Shown one piece after another: positions 17,101-61,970 of a stretch of DNA of 64,000 bases. The notes under the pieces are model-generated. The model did not search any database and had not been told where the DNA came from. It saw only the letters and a list, made by a program, of their open reading frames with translations. The position numbers and the translations under genes are program-made. Within the stretch, counting starts at the first letter, position 1. Every line of letters begins with the position of its first letter. The stretch lies in the IMG/VR virus record IMGVR_UViG_3300023110_000006; one strand, given 5' to 3'. This DNA comes from a virus.

Positions 17101-20100
17101 TGCTGTTCCTGTAAATGTTTCTGATTTTTTAACTTCTAGTATGTAAGGAGTTCCGCTAACTCTGTCAAATTTAGTAATTACATGCATTGCTCTTACTTTA
17201 CCATTGCCAAGAACTGCACTTGCTGAACCAAACTCGCCGCCATCAGATACTGAACCGTTTAATACTACGTCAGGTATACTTGTATAACCGCTACCAGGAG
17301 TTAATATTTCAATTTTGCTCAACTTGCTATTACTTAGGTATGCTTTTGCAGTGGCACCTGATCCGCCGCCTCCTTCAATAGTAACTTTAGGAGGTAATAC
17401 ATATAAATTTCCAGTTTTACCTATTGTTATTTCTTTAATTTCATAGCCTACATTATCTTTCCACCATTTGTCAGGATACTGATCAATACTATCAGGTAGA
17501 TTAGTTATTACATTGTTATTAATTTTTGTATTTGTAGGAATAATTTTTTGTTTAATGTAATCATATCTCGGAGGTAAATCAAAATCAGAAATTGTAGTAT
17601 TTGTAGGTTCTACCTTTTCATAAGAACTTACATACTGTCTAACTTTAGTTTTGTATGGTTTTACTTCGTTGATATAATCTTGGTAACTTTCAATGCTATC
17701 ATTTTTAAATGTAATTCTTTGGCTTAAATCGCCAACATTGTGTACTGCTTGAATAAAGCTAGTTTTGAATGCCCAATCTATATTAGGTTGTTCTTTAAAT
17801 GCATATCTTAGGCTTGCTACAAATAACTTGTTGTATTCGTCATTCAGATTGTCAACAAACAAATTGTCTCTCAAAACTTCAAGTATAATACGTGTTTCAG
17901 TAACAGGCTGATTGTCATAAAAATTAGTATCAAAAGTGTTACTATCAAATCCAGTTAAATTATTTTCAACATCATACAACCCTGACTTAAATTGTATTGT
18001 TGCATTTTGTTTACCAACTACTGCATAATTTACTGTGTAATCTACATTTTGTTGATCGTCTATCTTTTCTAACAACAACCAACCGCCTGTGCCAACACTA
18101 CTAATTTTTACAATATCACCTACATTGTTTTGTAAGCCATCTAACTGATAGCTGTAGTCTATAAGATCTTTAATTTCAGTAAATGCGTTGAACCCATCTT
18201 CGTACCAATCTTTGTATTCCCAAAATAGATTTGTATCAAACCTCTGCGCTACTGTTCTATTCCATTTAGATCCATTGTAATTGTATAAACTCCATTTATT
18301 AGAAACTGTATCGTCATTTACAACTAGAACAGTAAAGTTTCTTACTGTAAGTGTAGTAGCAGAATCGTAACCTTCGCCTGGATCTACAATATTAACACTA
18401 GTAATTTTACCGACCTCGTCAATTGTTGTTTCTATTATAGCATCTGTACCTATACCATTTACAGTAACGGTTGGTCCTAATCTTGATGTTAATGTTTCTG
18501 TGTAACTAGGATCAATATAACCTCTACCAGGATTAGTAATAGCTACAGACACAATTCTACCGTCTATAATTGTAGGTGTTAACTCAGCTGTGATACGCTT
18601 TGCTACACCTACAAAAGGTAAATCTTGGAATGTGTCAATTGCTAGGTCATATCTTCTTGATGTAATATTAGGTTGTGGATCACTTTCTCTAAGTCTACTA
18701 ATGTCAAACTCGTCTACAATAATATTTTTAATTAAAACACCGTTAGCTCTTTCAATTACTTCTTTAAGAGCTTCAGTTCTATTAACAAACATACTTTGTC
18801 TTGGTTTGTTATTAATACCATATTTTGCTTTTGCACTTAATCTTGGATCTGGGACTTGTCTATCTTTTCTATCATAACCTATTAGACTATCAAACCATTT
18901 TAATTCAATATCTCTATTTGGTCTACTAGAGCCAATTCCGTCTGTTAAGATTTGGTACTCTAAATGTCTATTCTGTTCTTGATTATCTAAAGTGTAATAA
19001 CTTAAATTCAATGCAACATTGTTTCCTGACAGTAGAGGTTTTACATTAAACAGAGCCATTCTATCTTTACTCTGTAGTGCCGCAAAAGCATAACCTTGTC
19101 CTGCTGGATCATTAATTAATTGGCGGACGGCAAATGCAGTTAATTTTCTATTTTCTACACTAGGTAATACCTTTTTGTTTGCTACCCAATAAAAATATTT
19201 AGGTTTACTTCTACCTGCGACACTATCCCATACTAGTCTTGTGCTGTAAACTTCGTCACCATATCTACTAATTCCACTTATGCCCCTGTCTAAACCATCA
19301 TTAGTATCAGCAATCTCATTCCATTCTGCAGGTAATAAATCAGTCATTACCCATTCATAAACATTTACTATACCATTAGGGAATGGTTTGCCCCAATAAT
19401 TTGTTTGATATTGTATATCATTTTGATAATAGTTATAATATTTAACTGCACCTATATCCCACCATAGTTGTCCTACATGATCTGCACCCCAACTATTTTG
19501 TTCATCAACTACAACCGTATCATCTCCTATGCTATAAGTTGCAGGATCATAATATGTTTTGTAACTTATTTCTTGTTCTGCAGGACCTGCAATTTTTCCT
19601 TGTACAGGATCAATAAAGTCTAGTGATTGTACTAGAGTATTAGTTTCAGTATTGTAAAGGAATAAGTTTTTAATATTTGGAATATCAATTTGATCAATTG
19701 GTGATCTATGTGTGTTCCATGCTTTGCTTCCTATTGGTTTTCTAAAGTCTACAATAATACCTTGATAAGTTGCTAAATCTGTCATTTCTGGAATAGCAGT
19801 ATAAACATGATTTTGTTTTACAAGCAGATTTTTACCAAATTGTATTGCGTTAGGATCATCAAATATAAACTGTTCAGAATAAATTAAACTTTTGTTTATT
19901 CTTTCGTACATAAAAATTACGCCAGCGTCAATATTAGATGCTTTCTTAAATTTTGTAAACCCATCATCAAAAGTTGTAGTATCATTGTCAAAAGTATTAG
20001 GTATTTCAATATCACCATTTAATGATGTTACTGCAAGCTGATTACCGTCAAAGTTAATATATGCACCAAAATGTTCTGTTTGTTCATTGTTAGGTGATTT

Positions 20101-23100
20101 TAACGTTTGGTTTAAAACAAACTGTTGATTTTGTAATGTGTAAACATATACTACACCTTGATCTCTTTTAATATTATCATTAAAAGTTTCTGATATAGCA
20201 ATCATTTCACCGTCTGTAGAAATACTTACAGCATCACCAAAGCCGCTTAAATTGCCTGTAGATAAATCTACATATGGTGCTTCTATACTTTGAGAAAGTA
20301 TATATTGTCCTCCTGGTAATTGTCTATAAACATTTACTATACGTTCTCCTGTACTATCGTTTCCTTGTATGCGAGAACTTACAATCATTACAGAACCATC
20401 CGGCGTCTGATCAAAACTCTTAGCAAAATCTCTAATTCCAAATTCTGGATCGAATGTTTCTTCACCTACAAATGCATTTAAAGGAGTATTTGGAATATAT
20501 CCAACATGACTAATTCCAATATCTAATGCTGTCCAATCAGCTTGTATAAATGCACTTCCGCTTGCAATGTTTCTAAGAGCTTGATATGGTTTTCCTAAAT
20601 ATTCTACAATTTCATTTTGTTTATAGAATGTTTGTGAATCAAACTCTCCTCTAAATAAAGGATTAATATCTAAATTAAAATCAAAAGTATTTGCATCTGT
20701 ATCAGTGCCATGTTTAATAAAATGTATACTACCTGCATTATTGGAAGTATTGTTACCATTGCTTGCTACTGAAATTCTATAAATTCCACCATCTTTTGAA
20801 AAACTAATTTCATCGCCCAGTCTCTTGTAGTTTTGTCTTTCTGGCACAGTATAACTATTATAAACTTGGTACTGTCCGGTGTTACTTATATCATATACAG
20901 TAAACATACCTTCTTCTGTTAAGCCACTCACTGTTGTACCAGGACCGTCTTTAACAATTAGGTTGTTTACAAGATTCCAGTCGTTATTATTTGAGGAAGG
21001 AATATTTGGATCCCTTGGAATACCCTGTAATGTGTCTACATCATAGAAGAAGTATTCAAAATTAGTAAGTTGAGATTGAGCAACGTTTGCAAAATTACTG
21101 TCCTCTTCTATAACAATAATTTTACCAACCAACGAACCAGCAATGCTTACTTGCTTAATTTCACCTATAGGTCTTGCGTTTGCCCTAATTCGAAGTATGT
21201 TTGCAGTTGTTCCAAAATTATCACCAACACTCCATGTACCTGTGACATTTTTAACATAGATTCTTACATCGTTAAATTGTCGTTTGTAAAACGCAACTTC
21301 TGCTTCAGCACCTGTAACACTGTCTCTAACTGTATCGCCTATTACTAATTCAAATGGTAACTGTTGTCCGCCAACATTTTGGAACTGTGTGAATTCAAAA
21401 TCAATATAACCATCCCATAAATCACTTACTGTATGCTCTTTGTTAATTAATGTTCTGTCAATTGCTGTATCAGTGAAATCAGTATTAATTACATCTACAT
21501 CCATATAAAATTTATCACCATTGCTTAGTGTAGATGTAAATGTAGCTGGTCCTCTTACAGTCCATAGAGGAGATGGATAAACTGCAAAGTTGTTGTTTGG
21601 ATCTCCTTCGTATGTAAGTGTTTCCATAAATGATGCTTGTTCATTTAAAGTAACTGGCAAAAGTAGTTGTGTTTGATTGTTTTGAGCTGTAACTTCTGTA
21701 GGTGTAATGTTGTAATAAAAGTTAGGTGTTGTTCTTCCACTTGCGGCAGTCAATATATCAACATACACTAATCCATGACCCGGATCTGTAAACACGTTTG
21801 AACTATCGTTACTTGTAGTATATGTTGGTGTATCTATCCACCAATAACCACCAAGGACATTTGTATTATCTTGGAAGTCTTCACTAAAGTCTCCTATGCG
21901 TAAATTGCCTACAAACAAAGTACCAGATTGTTCAAAAGTACCATTTACATTTGAAACATAAATTGTTAATGTTTCAATATTATTTGCAACATGAACTATT
22001 TCACCACTTGCAACTGCACTTGATATAGTTTCACCAACTGACGGTAAGTTAACGTAGTTTTGTACTACTAAGACGTTATCAACTTTCTTTTGTATGGTGT
22101 GCTGATCACTTATTACACCGTCTGTGATAGCTGGAAATTCTCCATTGAAAGGTTGTACATCAACATTGTATCCTTCAGGATGAACATAGCTAAAGTTATT
22201 CCAATTAAGAACTAATGTATCTCCAACAGCTGAAGCATTATAAGCTGTATATGGTGCTCTTACAAGTACATGGCTTGTTTGCTGATTGTTTAATTTGTAA
22301 TCACCCGCTTGTAGTAAATTAACTAAACTACTATCAGATTGAGACACAATGTTTACAAAACTATCAAAACTAGAAAATTCAATAGCACTGGTGCTAGGAT
22401 CAATTGCCTGAATTGCTTCAAATAAGTTTGGTCCGTATTTTACAATTTGTCTTTTATTATAAGCTCTTGAAGGATTAAACTCTCCTTGATAAAAAGAATA
22501 AACACTTGATGCTTTTGGTGAACCTACTACAACATACAATCCATCTGGACTTACTGCAACACTTTCTCCAAATTGTGGTGCAACACTAGTATTTCCTATT
22601 ACGCTAATAGGTGCATCTAAAATTTGATCTAGTACAAAATTTGTGCTGTCGCTTGCACGTTTGTAAATATGGACTTGTCCATTACCTTTGTATGGAATAC
22701 CAACTGCCATAACTGTATTAGATTCATTGACGCTTATACTGTGCCCAAAGCCGTGGAAGGAACTATCAAGTTCTATAGAACTTAATATTTTTTGGTGCTC
22801 GTTATAAACTTTATTATTTTTTAGTACAGTCCACTTATTATTGTCATCATTGTCTACCCAAATTATTTCATTTTGCTTTAAACTTGATGTTACATTGTCA
22901 TTTGCACTTTGTAAATCTGCTTCTCGCTGACTTGTAAAAAATGATATTGTTCCTTGAGGATTTGCATCATCATAATTACTATAATCATCTTTGGTAGTTG
23001 TAAACTCAATTATATTATTATAAACTTTTGTTGCTTTATAAAAACCATCCATATTTGTATAGGTAGTGGTATTCATATTTGTAATACCAAATATATCACC

Positions 23101-26100
23101 TACGCTTATATCTCTGACTGTTTCATTTAAAGTAATTGTTATGACACTATTATTATTGTTAAAGCCAACTATTCTCAGTGAGCTTTCTGTATGTTGTAAA
23201 ACATCCCATGTTTGGTTGTTAGTGGCTACCCAGATATAAGCATGTTTGTCTATATCAGTAATGTTAAAATCTAATATACCGTCTTTAGTGGTAACTGCAC
23301 GGTTGACATCTTGTCCTGTTACATATCCTACTGTTTTTACAAAAAAATCATCGTTGTATTTTGTAGGTAATTTGTTTGTGTCATATCCTGTTGGTTTTAA
23401 AAATACATCATAGTTTGGTATTCTGTAAACAAGATCAGTTTTTCCTACTGGAACATTATCTACTAGTTCAATTGTTTGCGGCTCAACTTTAAATTGATTT
23501 TCGTCTAGTTGCCATTCAATTTCATCATAATTATCTGTAGCACCATAACTACCTGTTTTGATTGCCCATTCTTCGTTAAAATCTACACTTTCTTTGTTTG
23601 CACTAGCCAAACTATCAAATAGTTTATCAATACTATTACGTGTACCTTTGTCTTGTATAAATCCTTGGTAGAATTTAAACTGGCTTACATCATCATTTAT
23701 TATGTTTTCTAAATACTGTCTTTTTTGGTAGCCAGTTAAATGTTGAGCAAGTTTTTGTTGCTCTACATCGAAATTATCACTTTCTAATTCATAAAAATCT
23801 GTAAACTGATTAACTCTATAATCAAAGTTTGTAAGTAATTTAGGAGTAGGTTTAGAATCTAATTTATTCCATTTATTAGCAACAAATTTTTCAGTACCAG
23901 GCACTGTATTTTTTGCAGTATAATAAAATTCTTTATAAAGCACTGTGTCGCCAATAGCATAATCTTTGTATTGTTCCCAATCTGATACTTCAGCTTTATC
24001 GTATACGAATCCTGGAATATTTAAACTTCCATCCCAGCCATCGCTTACATAACCTAAAACTCTAATTCTTTCTTGCCTATATCCTGTCACAGGATCATAA
24101 ATTACATCACCGAACACACTTGTATTATCTAAAAGTGCCACATGTTCTATTTGAACTAAGGGTAGTTCAACAAAGTACACTCCGTCTGCGGTGTTTACTA
24201 ATGTTATATTGAAGTCATTACCAGATCTTGCTAATCTTGTAAATTCTCCTTTAAGTTGTTCACCACCTGCATTTTGCATTTTATTTTCATAAAATTTGTT
24301 TTGAAGATCATCAACTACATTGTATTCTTTTTTAAAGGTAATTTGATTAGCACTAGGACTTAGTGTTAAAACAGTACCCGGTGCCCATCCTTGAGTGGTC
24401 CAATACATAAATTCTTTAGTGCTTAATTTCCAATCTTCTACAGTTTGAGATTCTTGGTTGTAATAATCAAAAGTGAATCCTTGTGTTTCTAAATAGTTTC
24501 CGTAACCTAAAAGAAAATCAACAACTTCTTGTGTAGTATTAAAAACATGACCATAAGGAAGAGTTTCTACATCTGTATCAAAGGCAGTTCTAAATTGAGC
24601 AGTTACTCCGCCTCTTGTTGGTATTGTAGGAATTTTGGTATATTTGCTTGGATCAAAAACAGTTGTGCTTGTATGTTCTTCAACTACTTTATAAAAAGTA
24701 TTTTCATATCTAACATAACTGTCAATAGTATATTTTTTATCAGTATCCCATTCTACAAAACTTTCACTTACTCCTCCAACATTTATGTTAGGGTCATCTA
24801 CTCTTTGTTTTGCAGGTGTATAGTAAAATAAAGGATCTAATTTGTTATATCCTCTAATAACATATCCATATGATTGTTTTTCTATTATTACGCCGCTATA
24901 AGATACAATACTAGTAGGCGAACTTCTGTTTAATGCAACTGTATAATTTTCAAAAGGTAAAAATACGTTACCTTTATTAAACGGAGTTCTGCTGTCTAAA
25001 ATAAATCTCAATTTATTCTTATCTGTAAATGCGCCTAGTTTAATTCCTAGCTGTAACTTCAATCCTTTTAATTCTGCTTCATATTGATTATTTGTAATTT
25101 CACTATTTTTCAAAACATAATTTACAACATAATCTACAAAACCGCTTGTATAAACTCTTGTTACATCGCCATACAAATTACTAAATTCTAAGTTTTCTAT
25201 TGCAACTGGTTTATTTGTATTTCTGTAAACCCATTGTCCTGCAAGGTTTCTTTTTACAGCTGAAATATCCCAACCTAGTCCCATTACTTTAGAAGGTTGT
25301 GATAATAACCATGCTTTTACAATACTAAAAGGATATTCTCCACTTCTTCTCCAAGCAGTTTCTGCAGGGCTTTGATCACCAAACTTAAATCCTTTTCTTG
25401 CATAAGACTGTACATAGTCTTTTGCATATCCGCTGGCTAGTGGACTTATTAGATTACCATCTACATCAACAGGAATATGTTTTGAAAGATCTTGTCTAAC
25501 ATATTTTTCATTGTATATTACAGGTTTACCTGGTTCTGCAATTTTTCCTGCTTCTAAATCTTCCCATAGTATTAAGTTATCAGAAGTATACGGAGCAGGA
25601 CCATACTTTTTCTCCCACCATTTAGGTTTAATACTAAACCCTAGCATTTCCCAAGGTGTAGTATGAGGTGTGTCAGTGTCGTATGCTTCTTTATATACAT
25701 TTCTCCAGAACCCGTCAATTCTTATTTTGCCAGGGCCTGTCATGTCTGAGTAGTTGTAAGTAAAGCTGTCTGTCTCTAAGAAACTATTATTTGTAGTATA
25801 ATCTACTCCGCCTAGACTTTCTGACCATTTTACAAAGTCTTTTAACAAAATATTGTCTATTTGTTTTTTTGTAAACTTTGTATCTCTGTCTTTTGACGGT
25901 ACAAAGTCATTTATGTCTAACTTTGTTGTATCATAATTTACTTTACAGTTATTATAGATTCTTCTTTCTAATTCTAATAATAAATTGTCTCTAAAATCAT
26001 TATATCCTACTGTTTTACTTCCGTCATGTCCAATAATTACTGTTGTAGGTGTTCTATATGAATTATCAATTTCTATTCTAGGCAAAAACTTAGGATATAA

Positions 26101-29037
26101 ACCTAGTTTTGTAGGAGTAGGTGGTACAAAACTTCCGTCTGTACTTTCATACTCAAAAATTTCTATTTTGTCACCTTCTATTTTAGGTGCAGTTATTACA
26201 GCAAATCCGTCATTGTTAAATGTGTAATCTATATCATAAGCTAATTGTTGTCCGTTTTTATAAATTAGTACAGATTTATTTGACATTTTTGATAAATCAA
26301 ATACTTCACTTAAACTAAAAAAGTTATTTTCTTCATCGTATACTGTAAACTCTAATCTTTTATAACCTTGGTAAGGAATCATGTCACTAAAATAAAAAGG
26401 ATCATTAGTAGTTTTTGTTTTGAATGCTTCCTTTAGTATTCTATCAACATGTTGTCTAACAGGTCCTTCATAACCTAATGTGTCAGCAATTTGTATAAAA
26501 GATCTTTTAAATGTTCTATATTCTTTTCTAGCAAAGTCTATAGCTTTTACTATGTTGCCGCCTTGTGTTGTAATATGGTAAAAAGGTAATACAGCAGGGC
26601 CTGCATGTTGTAAGAATTTTTTACCAAATTGGTTAACATCTCCTAAGTCACCTAAGTTACTGTTACCGGGAAACTCTCCTTTAAAATCTTTTAAGTCTTC
26701 TATCATGCCAAAAACATGATCGTTAATTTCGCCTAAAGTAAATGTTGATAAATCTTTATTTGCACTATTTCTTTCTAGTCCAAACGGAAATTCGTAATGT
26801 CCGTTTTGATTTTTAGATGTAGCACTATGAGTTTTAATAATAACTTTTGCTTCGCCTTCAATAGGTGTGTCGAAAGTTACAATAGCTTTTTCATTTTGTT
26901 TTGACAAACTCCAGTCATATCTATACTTGTTGTCTACTAATACAGAAATATCTAAGTCTGTTAAAAGACCGCTTTTATCATAAACATCTATCTCAAATGC
27001 TTGTGCAGTATCTACGATATTATATTGTGCAACAACTTTTTGCCTTAGGTCATTTTTACCTTTTGTCCAACCATTTTTATATTCAAACGTACTAATATCT
27101 GAATACTTACGCAAAAATCCTTCTTTTGTTTTTTTGCTTACTACATTATTATTTTCTTGGTATGTAAAAGAGTTTGTAACTAGATCAAAATTAAACGTAA
27201 TATCTCCTACGTTTTCTAATGCTCTGTAAACTAAAGGAAACCCTAGTTCGACGTCATCGGTGCCTGTACCAACAGCATAAGAAAATAATTTAGTTCCTTC
27301 AAATGTTGTTGTGGAATATACAGATGTATCACTAAAACTTACACCGTTTTCGTCAAATAAATCAAAATGCGGTTGTTGATTTAATTTTGTTTTTTCCTGT
27401 CCTTTAATCCACTTTGTTCCATTATACCACCAATGTTTTCCTCCGTTTTCAGTTCCTTTTTTAATTAGAACTACATCATTATTTTGTGGATTTGCATTAG
27501 TGTCTTCTATAAGAGCAATTTGTGGCACTGTTCTATTATGTGTGATAAACTTAACAAGATATATTTTATTATTAACACGGATATCAGTATCTGCAACAAA
27601 CAATACACGCATGCCGTCAGTTAAATCTACTCCGTCAATATTATATCCTACACCGCCTTCAATGTCACTAAACACATCTTTACTTTGTGTGTCAATAATA
27701 TCAATATCGTATGCTTTCGATTGTGTTCCAAAATTATTTAATTTTATACCAGCTTCGAATTCTATAATAGGTCTTTTAGCTCTTTGTGATTGGTCAATAT
27801 CAACTATATTACCATTTAATTCTGCGGCTTTTTCGATAACACTACGATGGAACCATTTGTTGTTACGTGACCAAGCGTTCCTGTCAGGAGATGCCCTGTT
27901 AATTACAATATAATCTTTATTAGCACTGTAACTAGCCGCATTACCATAAGGCAGTCTATCAAAACTTTGTCCATCAAACGGTATAGGAACATCGTCAGCA
28001 TACGCAAGATTAATTACTAAATCTTGCTCGTTTATTAATTTAATTGAACTACCAACACCTTCTACAATATATTCACCTAACGCAAATTTTGCAGGTGTTA
28101 CATCTCCTGCAAAATTAATTTTCATTCCGTTTTGTAAATTAAAACCTTTTGCAGTTTTATAAGTTTTTTTACCTAATATTTCTGCTTCTACATCTATTGC
28201 TGTTGCTTCGTCTGCATCAGATATTCTAATTATGCCGCCTGCATTGATATTGTTACTATCTACATAATATAATCTATTAGGTGCATCGTTAGGAACAGTA
28301 AAAGTAATTGTTCCTTCTTCTATATTATTATTAATTAAAGAATTATCTTCATAGATAAATTCATCATCTAAGTTTCTTTCTGTTCTAATACTGAATTTCA
28401 TTTCAGGAGTGCTTACCTGAAAATTATAAGTTTGTCCTCTGAATAATTCAATAGTTGCATTTTGTTCTAAATTACTATTAAAAACAAATGCAGGACTAAT
28501 ATCATTTTGAACACTGTTAACTAAAAAAGTAGTTTCTATTTCTGTGCTTTGTCCTACAACTTGTACAGATGCTGGACCGTTTGGTAGCCAAAAGTATTCT
28601 CTAAAGTTTACAAGTTTATCCCAATCTACATTAGGATTCCAAGAATAATATTCTGCTTGATTAAGTTTACTATGGTTAGTAACATCACTACCAAAATTTC
28701 TTAACTGGTTAATATAATCATTATAATCTTTGTAATAATTTACATTGTCTAATAAATCTTTATTTACAACTACAGGTTCTAATTGATATGTTTCTCTGTC
28801 AGAGTTAATATCTTCTACATAATTGTCTGCAACACGAAACGCTTTTGCATCACGTCTGCCGTAATAACCATTTAACTTTACTGCAACACCCGGTTGAGTA
28901 ATTTGATCTAAAGTTCCATCTAAAAACTTTTCATTTTTTGGAGTACGAAAATACTTAGGAAGAAAGTCTTTTGTTTTTCTTCCTCTTTTGCCGCCAGCTG
29001 GTAACGGGCTTTCATTTTGCTTGTTATCGTATGCCAT
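14185..29037 (-). CDS. giant (4950 aa) baseplate wedge/virion protein, gp7-like position
   Basis: Uninterrupted 14.85-kb ORF coupled to gp6 (TAATG overlap), with beta-propeller-like FG repeats and CBM-like aromatic modules. Confidence 0.7.
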   Translation of the reverse strand: MAYDNKQNESPLPAGGKRGRKTKDFLPKYFRTPKNEKFLDGTLDQITQPGVAVKLNGYYGRRDAKAFRVADNYVEDINSDRETYQLEPVVVNKDLLDNVNYYKDYNDYINQLRNFGSDVTNHSKLNQAEYYSWNPNVDWDKLVNFREYFWLPNGPASVQVVGQSTEIETTFLVNSVQNDISPAFVFNSNLEQNATIELFRGQTYNFQVSTPEMKFSIRTERNLDDEFIYEDNSLINNNIEEGTITFTVPNDAPNRLYYVDSNNINAGGIIRISDADEATAIDVEAEILGKKTYKTAKGFNLQNGMKINFAGDVTPAKFALGEYIVEGVGSSIKLINEQDLVINLAYADDVPIPFDGQSFDRLPYGNAASYSANKDYIVINRASPDRNAWSRNNKWFHRSVIEKAAELNGNIVDIDQSQRAKRPIIEFEAGIKLNNFGTQSKAYDIDIIDTQSKDVFSDIEGGVGYNIDGVDLTDGMRVLFVADTDIRVNNKIYLVKFITHNRTVPQIALIEDTNANPQNNDVVLIKKGTENGGKHWWYNGTKWIKGQEKTKLNQQPHFDLFDENGVSFSDTSVYSTTTFEGTKLFSYAVGTGTDDVELGFPLVYRALENVGDITFNFDLVTNSFTYQENNNVVSKKTKEGFLRKYSDISTFEYKNGWTKGKNDLRQKVVAQYNIVDTAQAFEIDVYDKSGLLTDLDISVLVDNKYRYDWSLSKQNEKAIVTFDTPIEGEAKVIIKTHSATSKNQNGHYEFPFGLERNSANKDLSTFTLGEINDHVFGMIEDLKDFKGEFPGNSNLGDLGDVNQFGKKFLQHAGPAVLPFYHITTQGGNIVKAIDFARKEYRTFKRSFIQIADTLGYEGPVRQHVDRILKEAFKTKTTNDPFYFSDMIPYQGYKRLEFTVYDEENNFFSLSEVFDLSKMSNKSVLIYKNGQQLAYDIDYTFNNDGFAVITAPKIEGDKIEIFEYESTDGSFVPPTPTKLGLYPKFLPRIEIDNSYRTPTTVIIGHDGSKTVGYNDFRDNLLLELERRIYNNCKVNYDTTKLDINDFVPSKDRDTKFTKKQIDNILLKDFVKWSESLGGVDYTTNNSFLETDSFTYNYSDMTGPGKIRIDGFWRNVYKEAYDTDTPHTTPWEMLGFSIKPKWWEKKYGPAPYTSDNLILWEDLEAGKIAEPGKPVIYNEKYVRQDLSKHIPVDVDGNLISPLASGYAKDYVQSYARKGFKFGDQSPAETAWRRSGEYPFSIVKAWLLSQPSKVMGLGWDISAVKRNLAGQWVYRNTNKPVAIENLEFSNLYGDVTRVYTSGFVDYVVNYVLKNSEITNNQYEAELKGLKLQLGIKLGAFTDKNKLRFILDSRTPFNKGNVFLPFENYTVALNRSSPTSIVSYSGVIIEKQSYGYVIRGYNKLDPLFYYTPAKQRVDDPNINVGGVSESFVEWDTDKKYTIDSYVRYENTFYKVVEEHTSTTVFDPSKYTKIPTIPTRGGVTAQFRTAFDTDVETLPYGHVFNTTQEVVDFLLGYGNYLETQGFTFDYYNQESQTVEDWKLSTKEFMYWTTQGWAPGTVLTLSPSANQITFKKEYNVVDDLQNKFYENKMQNAGGEQLKGEFTRLARSGNDFNITLVNTADGVYFVELPLVQIEHVALLDNTSVFGDVIYDPVTGYRQERIRVLGYVSDGWDGSLNIPGFVYDKAEVSDWEQYKDYAIGDTVLYKEFYYTAKNTVPGTEKFVANKWNKLDSKPTPKLLTNFDYRVNQFTDFYELESDNFDVEQQKLAQHLTGYQKRQYLENIINDDVSQFKFYQGFIQDKGTRNSIDKLFDSLASANKESVDFNEEWAIKTGSYGATDNYDEIEWQLDENQFKVEPQTIELVDNVPVGKTDLVYRIPNYDVFLKPTGYDTNKLPTKYNDDFFVKTVGYVTGQDVNRAVTTKDGILDFNITDIDKHAYIWVATNNQTWDVLQHTESSLRIVGFNNNNSVITITLNETVRDISVGDIFGITNMNTTTYTNMDGFYKATKVYNNIIEFTTTKDDYSNYDDANPQGTISFFTSQREADLQSANDNVTSSLKQNEIIWVDNDDNNKWTVLKNNKVYNEHQKILSSIELDSSFHGFGHSISVNESNTVMAVGIPYKGNGQVHIYKRASDSTNFVLDQILDAPISVIGNTSVAPQFGESVAVSPDGLYVVVGSPKASSVYSFYQGEFNPSRAYNKRQIVKYGPNLFEAIQAIDPSTSAIEFSSFDSFVNIVSQSDSSLVNLLQAGDYKLNNQQTSHVLVRAPYTAYNASAVGDTLVLNWNNFSYVHPEGYNVDVQPFNGEFPAITDGVISDQHTIQKKVDNVLVVQNYVNLPSVGETISSAVASGEIVHVANNIETLTIYVSNVNGTFEQSGTLFVGNLRIGDFSEDFQDNTNVLGGYWWIDTPTYTTSNDSSNVFTDPGHGLVYVDILTAASGRTTPNFYYNITPTEVTAQNNQTQLLLPVTLNEQASFMETLTYEGDPNNNFAVYPSPLWTVRGPATFTSTLSNGDKFYMDVDVINTDFTDTAIDRTLINKEHTVSDLWDGYIDFEFTQFQNVGGQQLPFELVIGDTVRDSVTGAEAEVAFYKRQFNDVRIYVKNVTGTWSVGDNFGTTANILRIRANARPIGEIKQVSIAGSLVGKIIVIEEDSNFANVAQSQLTNFEYFFYDVDTLQGIPRDPNIPSSNNNDWNLVNNLIVKDGPGTTVSGLTEEGMFTVYDISNTGQYQVYNSYTVPERQNYKRLGDEISFSKDGGIYRISVASNGNNTSNNAGSIHFIKHGTDTDANTFDFNLDINPLFRGEFDSQTFYKQNEIVEYLGKPYQALRNIASGSAFIQADWTALDIGISHVGYIPNTPLNAFVGEETFDPEFGIRDFAKSFDQTPDGSVMIVSSRIQGNDSTGERIVNVYRQLPGGQYILSQSIEAPYVDLSTGNLSGFGDAVSISTDGEMIAISETFNDNIKRDQGVVYVYTLQNQQFVLNQTLKSPNNEQTEHFGAYINFDGNQLAVTSLNGDIEIPNTFDNDTTTFDDGFTKFKKASNIDAGVIFMYERINKSLIYSEQFIFDDPNAIQFGKNLLVKQNHVYTAIPEMTDLATYQGIIVDFRKPIGSKAWNTHRSPIDQIDIPNIKNLFLYNTETNTLVQSLDFIDPVQGKIAGPAEQEISYKTYYDPATYSIGDDTVVVDEQNSWGADHVGQLWWDIGAVKYYNYYQNDIQYQTNYWGKPFPNGIVNVYEWVMTDLLPAEWNEIADTNDGLDRGISGISRYGDEVYSTRLVWDSVAGRSKPKYFYWVANKKVLPSVENRKLTAFAVRQLINDPAGQGYAFAALQSKDRMALFNVKPLLSGNNVALNLSYYTLDNQEQNRHLEYQILTDGIGSSRPNRDIELKWFDSLIGYDRKDRQVPDPRLSAKAKYGINNKPRQSMFVNRTEALKEVIERANGVLIKNIIVDEFDISRLRESDPQPNITSRRYDLAIDTFQDLPFVGVAKRITAELTPTIIDGRIVSVAITNPGRGYIDPSYTETLTSRLGPTVTVNGIGTDAIIETTIDEVGKITSVNIVDPGEGYDSATTLTVRNFTVLVVNDDTVSNKWSLYNYNGSKWNRTVAQRFDTNLFWEYKDWYEDGFNAFTEIKDLIDYSYQLDGLQNNVGDIVKISSVGTGGWLLLEKIDDQQNVDYTVNYAVVGKQNATIQFKSGLYDVENNLTGFDSNTFDTNFYDNQPVTETRIILEVLRDNLFVDNLNDEYNKLFVASLRYAFKEQPNIDWAFKTSFIQAVHNVGDLSQRITFKNDSIESYQDYINEVKPYKTKVRQYVSSYEKVEPTNTTISDFDLPPRYDYIKQKIIPTNTKINNNVITNLPDSIDQYPDKWWKDNVGYEIKEITIGKTGNLYVLPPKVTIEGGGGSGATAKAYLSNSKLSKIEILTPGSGYTSIPDVVLNGSVSDGGEFGSASAVLGNGKVRAMHVITKFDRVSGTPYILEVKKSETFTGTAVTSVFNLKWPMNLNGAKVKVYLNGVESLRSEYTFENYIDKTKTYTREKGRIIFTDAPKLGTVVKVDYELSPNLLTAQDRIEMYYAPTSGMLGKDITQLMEGVDFGGVEVKSFDFKGSGGFEVDGYGTVPYDIYDNTYEDIIVQLDGSTVEFSWDNPLENGVVYNVYKNNVRIDDPNYLHDSSRGANPNAIMRSITGDGQQTTLNLDDLVIPSTNGDVFILRKVTSDGSFKPDSASYDTQLSGGALSYNNAKGIDAAEIIVDGDNFITPMTTTGPEELVPGRIADTVDIQVYHRPDDGASEIISKFWTTDGVNGTFDLGQHPNSIDAVWVKLDNATIKKVDYTIDWVNDTLTFDTIPTAGKVLNIVTMGNSGEKILDIDKFVADGSTNTFVTNAIWTDNATHFANINGVEISSQLYKTDDGLIGIEFNVAPQIGQVVDYGIFYGSNKSYSSTTTHTFVGDGSTTVFDIQTDSIGGLPTQHNTIVSVNDVILQAGYNIEMLIEANEREYFIEDWQYYSNSVKTSEVEVYLNDELLRKAIDYRWNSTANSITLTQGIGVVGDKLEIFLMADGEYAFGYVGTDETSTQRFISTRDKVYFDTAPVLGSTVEVQMFSNHDIQNLTRTKYDFLTRKTLVGGTQAFADYVSLANGIIKLRKEASHAQDVWVFLNGDRLVANVDYRTTDDPYYIKILKNISANDTIEYIEWSQEKLTVKFGFREFKDILNRVHYKRIDDNTKYKLASDLNWFDTKIDLVDATGLNAPSKASKIPGVVFINGERIEYFVKQGNSLRQIRRGTLGTGVNTLLTTGTEVIEQGPSENIPYRDETITQIFTADGVASTYELDFDASAIATQYKQDSGSTKTVAEITADLFEVFVAGRRLRKSAISVYQTDTKDAQGNFVTRFVDQDSPEGDITANAEFTLNGNTIQLAETPTDGQKIVVIRRIGKTWTNLGESLADADNDIANFIRARTTELPN

Positions 29038-32622: not shown

Positions 32623-33069
32623 TTAGATAAGTCCGTTGTTTTCGTCAAAATCTAGACGCATTTTTTCGGAAATATTGTAGGGCAAATATGTTAGATCAAC
32701 TTCAATTTGTATTCCACTCTCATATGTTGATACTGATATGCCATTGACCTGTAATCTAGGGTCATAATTTACTATATTTGTTACATTCTCTGCAATAGCT
32801 TTTTTTAAATCATCTGTAAATGGTTCGTACAAAGCGTCCCATATAATAGTACCAAATTCAGGATTTTCTAATTTTTCACCTTGACGTATATGAAAATGGT
32901 TAATCAAGTCCTGTTTGATTAGAGCAAGATCATAAAGTGTAGTACTTTTTTGTGCAGGATTTACTGTTGAAAGCCCTCTATATGCTTTGCTAGACACAAC
33001 AGGTTTTGGCCTATTTGTGTTACTATTAACAGCAATTCTTTTGTATAAATTTTTTTCTATAGTGCTCAT
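32623..33069 (-). CDS. baseplate wedge subunit gp25-like
   Basis: LIKQDLINHFHIRQGEKLENPEFGTIIWDALYEP...YDPRL matches the GPW/gp25 pattern. Confidence 0.85.
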   Translation of the reverse strand: MSTIEKNLYKRIAVNSNTNRPKPVVSSKAYRGLSTVNPAQKSTTLYDLALIKQDLINHFHIRQGEKLENPEFGTIIWDALYEPFTDDLKKAIAENVTNIVNYDPRLQVNGISVSTYESGIQIEVDLTYLPYNISEKMRLDFDENNGLI

Positions 33070-33076
33070 ACTGTAT

Positions 33077-33379
33077 TTATTGTCCTATGTTTACAAAACT
33101 TGCGCCGCTTGTTATTTTGTCATTATCACATGCATCGTTTTTCCTTGCTACATATGCACCCACGATCTTTACAACTGAACTACTTCCTGCTATAGCCGCA
33201 GTGTGGTCTGGGCAAGGTGGATTAGGTGGTGCAGGATGAGATACTGTCAAGTCGCCTTTTCTACACACAAGTTCTCCTTGTATTTTTACAAATGTTTGAC
33301 TAGGTGCATCAAGTGTTGTAGTACCTGTACAACTATGTCCTGTGCTTACTGTATCTCCTTGTCTTGCTACTTCTGGCAT
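33077..33379 (-). CDS. PAAR-repeat spike tip protein (gp5.4-like)
   Basis: VARQGD, VCRKGD and VARKND repeats with His/Cys metal ligands. Confidence 0.85.
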   Translation of the reverse strand: MPEVARQGDTVSTGHSCTGTTTLDAPSQTFVKIQGELVCRKGDLTVSHPAPPNPPCPDHTAAIAGSSSVVKIVGAYVARKNDACDNDKITSGASFVNIGQ

Positions 33380-52521: not shown

Positions 52522-54270
52522 ATGAGTTGGAAAAAATATTTTACACCAGTGCCAACAGCTGATAACTTAGGGGGAAGTTTCAGTCCTTTAGGTGGCGGTA
52601 AAAGAGGCGGTGGTGCTACAGCAGGACCAGCAAGGTCAAATTATAACAGTTATCTACCAGATGTATATGTAGGTAGTCCAAATCGTGTAGAGCGTTATGG
52701 ACAATACAATACAATGGATTTAGATTCAGAAGTAAATGCCGCACTAGACATTTTAGCAGAATTTTGCTCCCAAAAAAATACACAAAACAAAACTCCATTC
52801 CTATTAGATTTTAAAAAGAAAGCAACTAATTCAGAAACTACTATTCTACAACAGTATCTTTTACAATGGTGTAAAGTACAAAATTTTGAAACACGTATGT
52901 TTAGAATTATGCGTAATGCATTTAAATATGGCGATCAATTTTTTATTAGAGATCCAGAAACAAAAAAATTATTTCATGTAGATCCAGCAAACGTTGTTAG
53001 GATTATTGTAAATGAAAGTGAAGGAAAAACACCTGAACAATATGTAATTAAAAATTTTAATTTAAACTTTGCTGACATGGTAGCAACAACTCCTCATCAA
53101 ACTAACGGAAATGTTACTGGTGGAGGAGATGGTTACTTAACAGGCGGTGTCAGAGGAATGGTAGGACAAGCACCTACGCAAGCTGGTAGCAGATTTCAAC
53201 AAGGTGAAAATGAAATAACTATAGATGCAAAACATGTAGTTCATTTAAGTTTGTCAGAAGGCTTAGACAACAATTTTCCATTTGGTAATTCACTATTAGA
53301 AACAATTTTTAAAGTATACAAACAAAAAGAATTATTAGAAGATGCGATTATTATCTATCGTGTCCAACGTGCACCAGAGCGCAGAGTATTCTACGTTGAT
53401 GTGGGCAACATGCCTTCACACCTTGCTATGCAGTTTGTGGAGCGTGTTAAAACGGAAATACACCAAAGACGTATCCCATCGTCGACAGGTGGCGGTACAA
53501 ATGTCATAGACAGTTCATATAATCCACTGTCAATCAATGAAGACTACTTCTTCCCACAAACTGCGGAAGGTAGAGGATCTAAAGTTGAAACACTTCCAGG
53601 CGGTACTAACCTAGGAGAAATTGATGATCTTAGATACTTCACTAATAAACTTGTACGCGGGTTACGTATACCTAGCTCGTACTTACCAACTGGAGCGGAT
53701 GATTCAGCTTCACAATATAATGATGGGCGTGTTGGTACTGCATACATTCAAGAACTTAGGTTTAACACATACTGTGAAAGACTTCAAGGACTTCTTGTAG
53801 AAGATTTAAATAACGAATTTAAAAGATATCTTTTAGAAAAGGGTGTAAACATTGATACAGCAATGTTTGACATTAGATTCCAACCGCCACAAAACTTTGC
53901 GGCTTATAGACAAAGTGAAATTGATAATGCACGTATTCCAACATTTACTCAAATGAGTGCAATACCATACATATCTAATCGTTTTGCTATGAAACGTTTC
54001 TTAGGATTAAGTGAAGAAGAGCTTGCAGAGAATGAAAGACTATGGCGAGAGGAAAATGATGAAAACCTACAACCACTACCAACAGATGCGGCAGGTGAAA
54101 TGCGCGGAGCAGGTATAAGCAGTGCAGGTATTGATGCTGACATGTCTGGAATGGATGCAGAAGTTCCAGGAGGTGATGCACCAGTTGATGGAGGAACAGG
54201 AGAAGGCCCAGAAACCGCTACAGGAGATGCAGGCGCACCAGCAGAAGGAAATACTGACGTAACAGTATAA
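52522..54270 (+). CDS. portal protein gp20
   Basis: LLEDAIIIYRVQRAPERRVFYVDVGNMP, EDYFFP, GRGSKVETLPGGTNLGEIDDLRYF. Confidence 0.95.
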   Translation: MSWKKYFTPVPTADNLGGSFSPLGGGKRGGGATAGPARSNYNSYLPDVYVGSPNRVERYGQYNTMDLDSEVNAALDILAEFCSQKNTQNKTPFLLDFKKKATNSETTILQQYLLQWCKVQNFETRMFRIMRNAFKYGDQFFIRDPETKKLFHVDPANVVRIIVNESEGKTPEQYVIKNFNLNFADMVATTPHQTNGNVTGGGDGYLTGGVRGMVGQAPTQAGSRFQQGENEITIDAKHVVHLSLSEGLDNNFPFGNSLLETIFKVYKQKELLEDAIIIYRVQRAPERRVFYVDVGNMPSHLAMQFVERVKTEIHQRRIPSSTGGGTNVIDSSYNPLSINEDYFFPQTAEGRGSKVETLPGGTNLGEIDDLRYFTNKLVRGLRIPSSYLPTGADDSASQYNDGRVGTAYIQELRFNTYCERLQGLLVEDLNNEFKRYLLEKGVNIDTAMFDIRFQPPQNFAAYRQSEIDNARIPTFTQMSAIPYISNRFAMKRFLGLSEEELAENERLWREENDENLQPLPTDAAGEMRGAGISSAGIDADMSGMDAEVPGGDAPVDGGTGEGPETATGDAGAPAEGNTDVTV

Positions 54271-54277
54271 ATACATT

Positions 54278-54526
54278 ATGATCCTAAGAGAACTATTTTA
54301 TTTTGACCGTGAAACTATTGAGCCAGTTGAGGATAAGCAATATGATCCTCAATATGATCACTCACCGGTTGACTTTGATAGCACACGTAAAACTCGATTA
54401 ACACTTAGTCAGATTAACCGTGCAAGACTAGCATCTGAAATTCATACAGAAGAACAAGAAAAGGAATTACATTTTGTTAGACAAATGTATGGATTAGCGG
54501 CAAACGCGGAGGCTGGCGGAGCGTGA
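54278..54526 (+). CDS. conserved phage hypothetical protein (head module)
   Basis: TATAAATA at 54266-54273 directly upstream; DSTRKTRLTLSQIN...VRQMYG. Confidence 0.75.
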   Translation: MILRELFYFDRETIEPVEDKQYDPQYDHSPVDFDSTRKTRLTLSQINRARLASEIHTEEQEKELHFVRQMYGLAANAEAGGA

Positions 54527-59314: not shown

Positions 59315-60481
59315 ATGTTTAGACAAATTATGCACGTATTACTTGTAGTATTAGGAATACAACTAGCTACATCAAATTCAGCAACAGCAAATGTTGAATA
59401 TCCATCAAAAGCATTTGAAGGTACAAGTATTGTAACGAGGCTGTTATGGCACGGATACAAATATGACGATCCAAGACAGGGCGTTAAAGAATTAATTGCA
59501 AACTTAAAACAGCTAGATGTTAAACGTGTAGTTGTACCTATTTGTATTGATCATATTGCAGAAAAGGGAAATTGTAGTAATCCTTATGCATATGCAAATG
59601 ATGATGTACGCTTTAATGTTATACAACAACTTGTGAGTGCAGGTTACCATGTAACAATTAGATTTCAACCAGAACGAGGCAAAAAAGCTAACGGTTCTTT
59701 TGTAACTTTTGTTGAAGACGGTATTCGTAATGACAAATATATTAGACAAAATTACTTTGATCTTTTACACAAGTATGCATTGCAATACTCAAACTTTTCA
59801 AAAGATGAGCTAAGTTTTAATATTCTTAACGAACCGCATTTTAGAAAAGTTGATAGACTGTATTTGCGTGAATATACTAAAATTGCTAGACAGGCAGTAG
59901 AAATTATTCGCAAACAAAGTCCTGATAGAATTATTATTGTACAATCTATTGCAAAAAGTGCTTTTGCACATGCTCCTCTAAAAAATAAAATTTTAGGATT
60001 TGGACCTAATAAATTAGTAAAAGTATTACCATATGACAATATTATTTACGGATTTAACTTTTTCGAACCAAATTCATTTACTGAACAAAGAAATGGTGCT
60101 AGATCAGGTCTTTCGTGGAACAGCAAATGGAACAAACAAATAGAACGTGATGCAAAAACACTAGCAAAATGGTCAAACAAAAAAGGTGTACCTGTGATTA
60201 TTACAGAAACTGGTGCAGTTACATATTTTGATGGTAAAACATCAGGACCTAGTACAATCAAAGAACGTGCTATGTTTGGTGAACAAATGTACAACAACTT
60301 TGTTGACAAATACGGTATAGGTTTAACTTGGTGGGCAATGGAAAAAGACAAATCATTATTTGTATATTGCAGAGCTGTATCATTTAACAGCTGGTATCCA
60401 CAAATTAGAGCATGGGATATTGATCTACTTAAGAGCTTACACTTGTTGTCAAATAAGACAGAAATTAAAACTTGTAGCTAA
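59315..60481 (+). CDS. secreted glycoside hydrolase, family 5 (cellulase-like TIM barrel)
   Basis: Signal peptide, NILNEP acid/base motif, ITETG nucleophile motif, LTWW. Confidence 0.75.
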   Translation: MFRQIMHVLLVVLGIQLATSNSATANVEYPSKAFEGTSIVTRLLWHGYKYDDPRQGVKELIANLKQLDVKRVVVPICIDHIAEKGNCSNPYAYANDDVRFNVIQQLVSAGYHVTIRFQPERGKKANGSFVTFVEDGIRNDKYIRQNYFDLLHKYALQYSNFSKDELSFNILNEPHFRKVDRLYLREYTKIARQAVEIIRKQSPDRIIIVQSIAKSAFAHAPLKNKILGFGPNKLVKVLPYDNIIYGFNFFEPNSFTEQRNGARSGLSWNSKWNKQIERDAKTLAKWSNKKGVPVIITETGAVTYFDGKTSGPSTIKERAMFGEQMYNNFVDKYGIGLTWWAMEKDKSLFVYCRAVSFNSWYPQIRAWDIDLLKSLHLLSNKTEIKTCS

Positions 60482-60492
60482 ATAGTCTTCAT

Positions 60493-60867
60493 ATGTTGAA
60501 GCATAAACATTTGGTGGTAAGAGCAGAAGTTGATAATCCAATAATCAACAAAGCAAAAGCCACCAAATTTTTACGATCTTTAATCAAAAAAATTAATATG
60601 AAACCTTTGTATGGTCCAACTGCAAGCTATTGCAAAATGGAGGGTAACAAAGGAATAACTGCTTTTGCAATTATCGAAACAAGTCATATTGCAATGCACA
60701 TATGGGACGAATCACAACCTGCACTAGTACAACTAGATGTATACAGTTGTTCAGACTTTGACCCAAAAACTGTATTTGAACATTTAGAGTCAATGAAACC
60801 AGTAGTAATTGACTATAAATTTTTAGATAGAGAAAAACAATTCATTGAAATATTAAATAATAAATAA
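60493..60867 (+). CDS. speD: S-adenosylmethionine decarboxylase proenzyme (pyruvoyl-dependent)
   Basis: GITAFAIIETSHIAMHIW...LDVYSCSDF. Confidence 0.85.
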   Translation: MLKHKHLVVRAEVDNPIINKAKATKFLRSLIKKINMKPLYGPTASYCKMEGNKGITAFAIIETSHIAMHIWDESQPALVQLDVYSCSDFDPKTVFEHLESMKPVVIDYKFLDREKQFIEILNNK

Positions 60868-60870
60868 TTA

Positions 60871-60918
60871 TACGTTCAGCCTACGGGCCGGAAGTAGCAT
60901 TAAGCGAAGGAACGCACC
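60871..60918 (+). promoter_or_regulatory. glutamine riboswitch aptamer (glnA-motif type)
   Basis: P1 CGUUC/GAACG, P2 GCC-UACG-GGC, E-loop GGAAGUA.../GAAG, P3 GC-AUUAA-GC; begins just after TAAATA at 60861-60866. Confidence 0.8.
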
Positions 60919-60943
60919 TAAACTTTAACAAAGGGAGGGTGAT

Positions 60944-61099
60944 ATGAACTTTAAATGGGATTTAAAGAAACCCTTAGCAGATCTTAAACGTAAAATAAGC
61001 ACAAGTGCAGTACTACGTAAACGCTCAAAAGACAGCATTGCAAGACCTAAGGCCGAAAAAAATATACTATCTAAAGACTCAAGAATGCAAAAAATTTAA
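60944..61099 (+). CDS. unannotated 51-aa basic peptide MNFKWDLKKPLADLKRKISTSAVLRKRSKDSIARPKAEKNILSKDSRMQKI
   Basis: Strong GGGAGG RBS, directly downstream of the riboswitch; below the ORF track cutoff. Confidence 0.8.
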   Translation: MNFKWDLKKPLADLKRKISTSAVLRKRSKDSIARPKAEKNILSKDSRMQKI

Positions 61100-61153: not shown

Positions 61154-61372
61154 ATAAGCAACAAGAGAGTAATTAACTTTTGTTTTTTAGTGCATCGAAG
61201 AGGCTCTTACCAGAGGGTCGAAGATGGCTAGTTAGGGGTGGTACCCAGGCATGGTTGCAGAAATGCGTTGTGTCACATCGCTCTACCGAGCGGAACTAGG
61301 CGCCCGGGATTCAGACAGGTATCTGCGTCGAAGGGTTGTAGGTGAAACCGAGTCCTACCTAAAATTGCTTAT
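61154..61372 (+). ncRNA. standalone ~220-nt structured RNA, possibly manA-motif related
   Basis: Closing helix ATAAGCAA/TTGCTTAT, two TACC-loop and two GGTA-loop hairpins, a GAAA tetraloop and a GTAGG/CCTAC stem; own promoter and terminator. Confidence 0.8.
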
Positions 61373-61380
61373 TATCTTTT

Positions 61381-61414
61381 AAGGTTTACAAAGGAGACTT
61401 TGTAAGCCTTTTTT
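61381..61414 (+). terminator. intrinsic terminator of the ncRNA
   Basis: aaggtttacaaag-gaga-ctttgtaagcctt followed by tttt. Confidence 0.88.
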
Positions 61415-61423
61415 CATTTGTGA

Positions 61424-61523
61424 TAAATACTTGTGTCAGGTAGTGTGCCGCGAGGCGGACTTATGGGGAACCAACCCCGTAGCACCTAGAACGTGCATCG
61501 GACTTCTATAAAGGAGAAAACAA
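61424..61523 (+). promoter_or_regulatory. late promoter plus structured 5' leader
   Basis: TAAATA at 61424-61429, then three hairpins (GCC-GCGA-GGC; TATGGGG/CCCCGTA; GCAC/GTGC) before AAGGAG. Confidence 0.65.
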
Positions 61524-61970
61524 ATGGGAAGACCACTTAATAAAAGATACTTCGGCGAACCAACTGCCGGAGGTAATGAAATCAAATGCGATTTTCATAA
61601 CGGGACAGCAGTTGTTGAAGGACACATTGTTCGTCAAAAAGGTAGTAAGAAATTCGTAGTAGCAGAAATCGGTGCATCAGACACTGAATACACTTGCACA
61701 TTAACAACAGGTAAACTTATGTCAGCACTAGCGGCTGGTGAAATGGGTATCACTATGTTAATGGATGATTCAGAAACATATCAAGTTTCTAAAATCACTG
61801 GACGTAAAGCAACACTAGTTGCTCCAGATGCAACAGGAACAAACGCTTATGACGGCAAGTCAGTAGCTTGGAACTTTGACGCAGATCTAACTGATGGCGG
61901 CGCACAAGTTGAAGAAGCTGGTGATGACGATACAGCAGGCGTTGATGATGACGATTTTGCTAACGCATAA
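61524..61970 (+). CDS. hypothetical protein, probably virion-associated (148 aa)
   Basis: Strong RBS, late promoter, MGRPLNKRYFG start. Confidence 0.75.
   Translation: MGRPLNKRYFGEPTAGGNEIKCDFHNGTAVVEGHIVRQKGSKKFVVAEIGASDTEYTCTLTTGKLMSALAAGEMGITMLMDDSETYQVSKITGRKATLVAPDATGTNAYDGKSVAWNFDADLTDGGAQVEEAGDDDTAGVDDDDFANA

Follow-up and report, generated by a model that had tools for sequence, protein, structure and literature searches.

A predicted type 1 glutamine riboswitch behind a late-promoter-like element precedes a conserved 51-codon phage gene

Riboswitches in viruses are rare. The closest described counterpart of the element analyzed here is the leader of gifB (IF17) in Synechocystis sp. 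PCC 6803, where an aptamer of the glnA RNA motif (Weinberg et al., 2010; PMC2864571) forms part of a type 1 switch through which glutamine raises translation (Klahn et al., 2018; PMC6212724). In the model proposed by the latter authors, the C that follows helix P1 pairs, along with its neighbours, with the ribosome binding site (RBS) until glutamine melts the helix. T4-like cyanophages carry glnA, manA and wcaG RNAs (Weinberg et al., 2010; S-CREM1, PMC9964418), with no regulated phage gene named for the glnA RNA in these reports. Glutamine riboswitches have been described as well in the Methylophilales phage Melnitz, the Pelagibacter phage Mosig and pelagimyophage MAVGs (Buchholz et al., 2022; PMC9004378), and in that work the ssrA gene upstream was taken as the target of the switch, with a link to lysis put forward as speculation. 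Phage glutamine riboswitches are thus already published (cyanophages, Melnitz, Mosig); what is new here is the controlled gene family, the coupling to a late promoter, the covarying expression platform and a presence/absence polymorphism.

The window, i.e. the whole 64,000-nucleotide stretch of a virus record from IMG/VR that was analyzed, corresponds to the head and virion-gene region of a phage. Jumbo T4-superfamily phages such as Phosso, Atu_ph07 and PA5oct have the closest counterparts (50-72% identity) of its gp23-type capsid and gp20-type portal proteins, and the phage belongs to a different structural lineage from Melnitz and Mosig. It shares with these phages and the MAVGs an RNA class found in phages whose hosts are streamlined marine heterotrophs. 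The leader region is similar in nucleotide sequence to Melnitz (79% identity) and the manA RNA to that of Mosig. As in gifB, an aptamer of this class lies in a 5' leader ahead of a gene for a small basic protein, and a short helix links the bases after P1 to the RBS, a helix that for gifB has been proposed. Unlike gifB, the promoter is of the phage late type and not NtcA-controlled, the regulated protein is not DUF4278/IF17, and the switch resides in a phage whose lineage is not cyanobacterial. The proximity of a manA RNA recalls the phage-borne RNA set of T4-like cyanophages. With IF7 and IF17 (DUF4278, PF14105) the 51-residue protein has in common its small size, its basic nature and its position behind a glutamine riboswitch, but there is no detectable homology, the YRG motif is missing, and the gene is often found without a riboswitch.

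The features of the locus are listed in Table 1. When the whole window was searched against Rfam with cmscan, the Glutamine riboswitch family (RF01739) was matched over the full model (1-53) with 47.6 bits, the gathering score being 35 bits. This was the first of three consecutive hits on the + strand, followed by a manA RNA (61160-61368) and a freshwater-2 RNA (61444-61526). An earlier, sequence-only reading of this DNA had written out the aptamer and called it glnA-type; the string is present as it was written, and the Rfam score agrees with the assignment. The same reading had proposed a comparison with the Downstream-peptide model, which yielded 17.2 bits against a gathering score of 33 bits, and the Glutamine-II class (RF01704) was rejected on this basis. 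A single copy of the core pattern CGGAAGTAG-N-GAAGGAACG is present in the window, and none turned up in 100 shuffles. Three helices are arranged round the conserved junction strands CGUUCA, CGGAAGUAG and GAAGGAACGCA, with CGGAAGUAG and GAAGGAACG as the conserved junction of the window aptamer, and every invariant column of the class is retained. The aptamer is located in a 5' leader with an expression platform, its 3' end 25 nt before the ATG.

Table 1. Position of the features identified at the locus (coordinates of the window)
Feature	Position	Strand	Basis or remark
Late-promoter-like element AATAAATA, core ATAAATA at 60860-60866	60859..60866	+	Motif statistics, position
Type 1 glutamine riboswitch aptamer (predicted)	60871..60918	+	RF01739 match, invariant columns, P2/P3 covariation
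Aptamer helix P1	60873-77/60910-14	+	Five-pair stem
Aptamer helix P2	60879-81/60886-88	+	
Aptamer helix P3	60897-98/60904-05	+	2 pairs in the window
Aptamer 3' tail CACCU, 5' arm of the platform helix	60915..60919	+	Covariation and permutation test
Shine-Dalgarno (SD) GGGAGGG, 4-5 nt before the ATG	60933..60939	+	Read from the sequence
Anti-tail GGGUG, 3' arm of the platform helix, overlapping the last three G of the SD	60937..60941	+	Covariation, permutation test, RNAfold
Gene for the 51-aa basic protein	60944..61099	+	GGGAGGG RBS, conserved family

To evaluate covariation, 53 distinct phage leaders, starting at P1 and ending at the ATG, were aligned with MAFFT, and the alignment was scored for a structure of four helices; the sequences are related, and the counts given below do not represent independent events. 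P1 was invariant across the 53 leaders, while compensatory changes on both sides were observed at every pair of P2 and P3. The third pair of P3, missing in the window, is also missing in 15 of the 53 leaders. The covariation score of the four-helix structure was 0.392, compared with 0.158 for shuffled controls and no more than 0.094 for controls with slid partners. Judged by these sequence features, the element is a genuine type 1 (glnA-type) glutamine riboswitch, which would be expected to bind glutamine.

The position C60915 aligns with the conserved C directly 3' of P1. In the 53 phage leaders, 96.9% of the cells of the platform helix (columns 54-58 with 83-87) were paired, and three of its five pairs varied on both sides, with CG in 31 leaders and UA in 18 at one of them, CG in 45, UA in 4 and AU in 1 at another, and AU in 49 and GC in 1 at the last. 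In an independent permutation test, four Watson-Crick pairs were found in 50 of 83 unique leaders, compared with 20.2 +/- 3.2 by chance and no more than 31 in any of 2000 shuffles. All five pairs between CACCU and GGGUG appeared in both the minimum free energy (MFE) and the centroid structures given by RNAfold for the window leader, and the pairing of CACC (60915-18) with GGTG (60938-41) pointed out in the sequence-only reading lies precisely there. The helix is short, with 4-5 pairs closing a loop of around 17-19 nt, and the folding energy of the window leader is no better than that of shuffled sequence (z = -0.56). Transcription attenuation was rejected, as no terminator is present 3' of the aptamer.

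The covariation in the phage leaders fits the published glutamine-ON model and adds comparative support for the anti-RBS helix postulated in it. An ON logic is predicted because the tail base needed by the bound aptamer also closes the anti-RBS helix, and the element is most likely a glutamine-ON translational switch, its direction being taken by homology from the Synechocystis gifB leader.

Upstream of the aptamer, AATAAATA overlaps the stop codon of a speD-like gene. It is a TATAAATA-like -10 element of the kind that stands before T4-type late genes, with A in place of the T of TATAAATA as its first base. The core ATAAATA has 11 copies in the 64-kb window, where 35.6 +/- 6.1 would be expected, i.e. 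an approximately threefold depletion, and all 11 are located at gene boundaries or starts on the strand of the downstream gene. This combination of depletion and placement at gene starts points to a functional motif that is avoided elsewhere. It had been claimed that TAAATA (60861-66) is followed at once by CGTTC, which is not the case: the six bases ATTATA (60867-72) separate the end of the motif from the first base of P1. This spacing is the modal distance between promoter and aptamer in other phages, since an ATAAATA ends 5-11 nt before P1 (searched within 12 nt), mostly at 6-8 nt, in 42 of the 123 unique contexts of phage glutamine riboswitches drawn from IMG/VR, for a background frequency of the motif of 0.0002 per nt. 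Taken together, motif depletion, position and spacing support the late promoter that had been proposed, and the start of the transcript is predicted from it. There is no terminator between speD and the switch, so that read-through transcripts are also likely.

The 51-aa Lys/Arg-rich open reading frame noticed in the earlier reading proved to be real. The product contains 16 Lys and Arg and 5 Asp and Glu residues, for a pI of 10.9 and a net charge of about +11, and has no membrane segment. Its relatives make up 152 protein clusters in a collection of 5.8 billion proteins, nearly all of exactly 51 residues, and an RSxxSxARPxA core is invariant in both peptide alignments. Among 53 distinct coding sequences the dN/dS was 0.18 and third codon positions were by far the most variable, so that on sequence grounds this is a conserved protein under purifying selection. 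An AlphaFold2 model (mean pLDDT 85) consists of one long helix (residues 3-33) and a conserved extended tail; if the model is right, a basic helix plus a conserved tail would be the shape of a partner-binding peptide. Neither Pfam (no hit at E values up to 1) nor PHROGs contains a family for it, only chance coiled-coil matches (E > 2) were obtained in a profile search of the PDB, and the ESM Atlas gave no usable match. A profile search of 1.84 billion representatives returned 55 short relatives, with no fusions and no relatives of known domain, and no relationship was detected with hhalign to three other riboswitch-linked phage peptide families. An antisense frame at 60925-61038 was also considered and rejected, since only about half of the homologues keep this frame open.

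The best overall explanation, to which we give a probability of roughly 0.75, is that a late promoter and a glutamine-ON translational switch act on this 51-codon phage gene. ATAAATA would start an mRNA whose first nucleotides form the P1 helix. At low host glutamine, CACCU would pair with GGGUG in a short helix stacked on P1, hiding the 3' half of the GGGAGGG RBS up to 2 nt from the AUG, and the gene would consequently be translated weakly. Upon binding of glutamine, the conserved C after P1 would be pulled into the long-range pair of the aptamer, the platform helix would melt, and the freed RBS would allow the small basic protein to be made.

At least 347 loci encoding the peptide were found in IMG/VR, and the peptide is carried on long contigs of 197-286 kb. 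A search of prokaryotes, with each of 185,579 species represented by a single genome, gave 5 hits, all on MAG contigs, and the one that was checked (L204) had a Mosig-like layout. Among 50,697 isolate phage records the only carriers were four Pelagibacter phages, HTVC023P, HTVC103P, HTVC104P and Mosig. These results define a widespread small-protein family that, by its distribution, is essentially phage-specific and all of whose cultured carriers infect SAR11. The suggestion of a SAR11-like host, made originally from a resemblance to small Pelagibacter proteins, is thus in line with the isolate carriers, but the resemblance itself did not hold, and a Pelagibacter cellular origin of the peptide was rejected, as no Pelagibacter cellular protein in the species genomes matches it. 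Nor was the peptide entirely hidden: the annotations of Mosig, HTVC023P and HTVC104P already list it as a hypothetical protein.

Mosig has the same riboswitch-peptide pair as the window, with the aptamer (L206, 2389-2442) directly before Mosig_00116. In Melnitz the aptamer lies 3' of the tmRNA and is followed by an unannotated 32-codon ORF that belongs to a riboswitch-linked peptide family. In both phages the aptamer therefore precedes a small ORF, unlike what the ssrA assignment of Buchholz et al. (2022) would imply, and it is most likely a small protein, not the tmRNA, that is controlled by the glutamine switches published for pelagiphages and methylophages. The Melnitz riboswitch (MZ577095.1, 45146-45315; L001, 3003-3172) is located at the 3' edge of the annotated ssrA; the 32-codon ORF is on the + strand with the SD GGGGAGAG, and the record has in its place a 33-aa ORF annotated on the other strand. 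Peptides with a WC motif related to the Melnitz ORF follow many phage switches.

The riboswitch was detected at 43 of 90 peptide genes with a regular expression and at 44 after an Rfam check, that is, at about half of them. Peptide genes lacking it are plain late genes or are located inside other operons. In a T4-like lineage with the gene order Hsp20, peptide, peroxiredoxin, gp45, gp44, close contigs differ by a clean indel, the riboswitch being either present or absent between the late promoter and the start codon: TATAAATA keeps its place and, together with a terminator hairpin, is followed either directly by the ATG or by a riboswitch-plus-SD unit of about 75 nt. Without this unit the message is nearly leaderless. 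The riboswitch is dispensable for the peptide gene. The record nearest to the window, a 23-kb fragment (G001), has no riboswitch. Mosig and HTCC1062 are both in culture and natural switch-plus and switch-minus variants exist, which makes the use of host nitrogen status late in infection directly testable. Two ATAAATA copies in the window, at 54267-54280 and at 33066-33080 (-), end only 4 nt before an ATG that has no SD, which by their layout implies nearly leaderless late mRNAs like those expected from the riboswitch-less peptide alleles.

With respect to the function of the peptide, our proposal is tentative: phages infecting streamlined marine heterotrophs of the SAR11 type might produce small basic effectors unrelated to IF7 and IF17, which in some lineages would have come under a host-style glutamine sensor, gating a late-infection decision by host nitrogen. 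If this were true, what is decided could be when the cell lyses or whether nitrogen assimilation by the host is held back, and the natural riboswitch-plus and -minus variants would be alternative strategies, one conditional and one constitutive, within a single phage population.

Our leading guess for the activity itself, which we regard as possible though well short of even odds, is a lysis-linked factor of the late phase, with glutamine gating coupling lysis timing to the nitrogen state of the host. The late promoter would agree with such a role, and a connection between riboswitch and lysis was already the speculation made for Melnitz (Buchholz et al., 2022). Immediately downstream of the peptide gene, podoviruses have a gene for a protein of about 120-140 aa that combines a single N-terminal transmembrane helix with a coiled-coil domain, after which HTVC023P has an M15 endolysin gene; the transmembrane neighbour is the first gene downstream in 12 of 71 non-redundant contexts and is present within 1.4 kb in 21. 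Every one of these lysis-linked copies, however, lacks the riboswitch, and the neighbours are speD and the manA RNA in the window and Hsp20 and peroxiredoxin in 28 contexts (T4-like myophages). The peptide itself has no segment that would insert in a membrane, and adjacency alone is weak evidence. A literature search on the HTVC023P lysis cassette and on DUF4278 in phages returned nothing relevant.

The sequence-only reading had suggested a glutamine synthetase inhibitor as a possibility. Formulated as a functional analogue of IF7/IF17, made at high glutamine to stop the ATP-consuming glutamine synthetase of the host, this function is unlikely, and the idea comes from analogy: type 1 switches of cyanobacteria drive IF17/DUF4278 genes with ON logic, YRG-repeat peptides that match PF14105 lie behind some of the other phage switches collected, and the window peptide is small, basic and modelled as a single helix with an extended tail. 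In addition, bacteria of the order of MAG G002 carry the aptamer in 20 of 46 genomes before glutamine synthetase (glnA) and ammonium transporter (amt) genes, which indicates that glutamine acts there as a nitrogen signal. Against these points, the peptide does not match PF14105, its hhalign probability versus the DUF4278-like phage peptides was 0.1%, and its distant homologues include none with known domains. About half of the genes of the family would escape such control for want of a riboswitch, and a late promoter would be an odd time to begin retuning host metabolism. Furthermore, Melnitz has a riboswitch and a small basic ORF, yet its OM43 host is said to lack glnA (Buchholz et al., 2022; PMC9004378).

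A third alternative, quite unlikely in our view, is a nucleic-acid-binding or virion-internal basic protein, costly in nitrogen and made only when glutamine is plentiful. The charge of the peptide and the late promoter could be accommodated by it, the window gene is within the block of head and virion-protein genes, about 1.7 kb after gp23, and the adjoining speD suggests a concern with polycations. Nevertheless, no homology to known DNA- or RNA-binding or internal head proteins was found, the invariant core speaks for a specific partner and not for bulk charge, and the gene occurs in many non-structural neighbourhoods. Finally, that the switch is glutamine-OFF or a decaying relic without regulation is very unlikely: its direction comes from homology only, riboswitch-less variants are viable, and the glnA and amt leaders of the order of MAG G002, which share the aptamer, are expected to be glutamine-repressed, so that both logics probably exist, but the platform of these bacterial leaders is a different one, with a CGGTA...TACCG hairpin, the dual use of the tail base predicts ON, and the aptamer has lost no invariant position and clearly exceeds the cut-off in score.

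Beyond the glutamine-ON reading of this locus, more than 120 phage glutamine riboswitches were collected, and nearly all of them have a small ORF with a strong SD 20-35 nt further 3'; these ORFs encode several unrelated peptide families. Tandem glutamine aptamers in seven loci (L014, L028, L057, L079, L092, L093 and L095) precede peptides of 46-53 aa with DNPFYP-like ends, two of which also have the YRG motif. In loci of small-genome marine bacteria of the order of MAG G002 (L210-L221, genomes G004-G035), RF01739 aptamers, often in tandem, are located before genes for an ammonium transporter, glutamine synthetase and a 122-aa secreted protein; in two of these loci (L217 and L218) tandem aptamers precede a 35-aa basic ORF with a phage-type CACT/AGTG platform.

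As for the surroundings of the locus, the speD-like gene, which would encode an S-adenosylmethionine (AdoMet) decarboxylase, is itself preceded by a gene for a GH5 glycoside hydrolase (cellulase family, with a hydrophobic N-terminus), and both occupy 59315-60867, between the capsid gene and the riboswitch. The manA RNA starts 60 nt after the peptide gene and scores 59.3 bits. A sigma-70-type promoter with 11 of 12 matches, TTGACA-17-TATATT with TG (61119-47), stands before it and an intrinsic terminator (61381-61410) after it, so that it seems to form a transcription unit of its own and not a 5' leader. The Mosig copy, 75% identical, is located before a rubrerythrin gene. In the 61423-61526 region, the freshwater-2 RNA (RF02980, 73.3 bits) lies 14 nt after another ATAAATA and runs into the SD and ATG of an ORF for a 148-aa acidic protein (61524-61970) that matches no family. 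Elsewhere in the phage structural region, a single ORF of 4950 aa extends over 14185-29037 (-).
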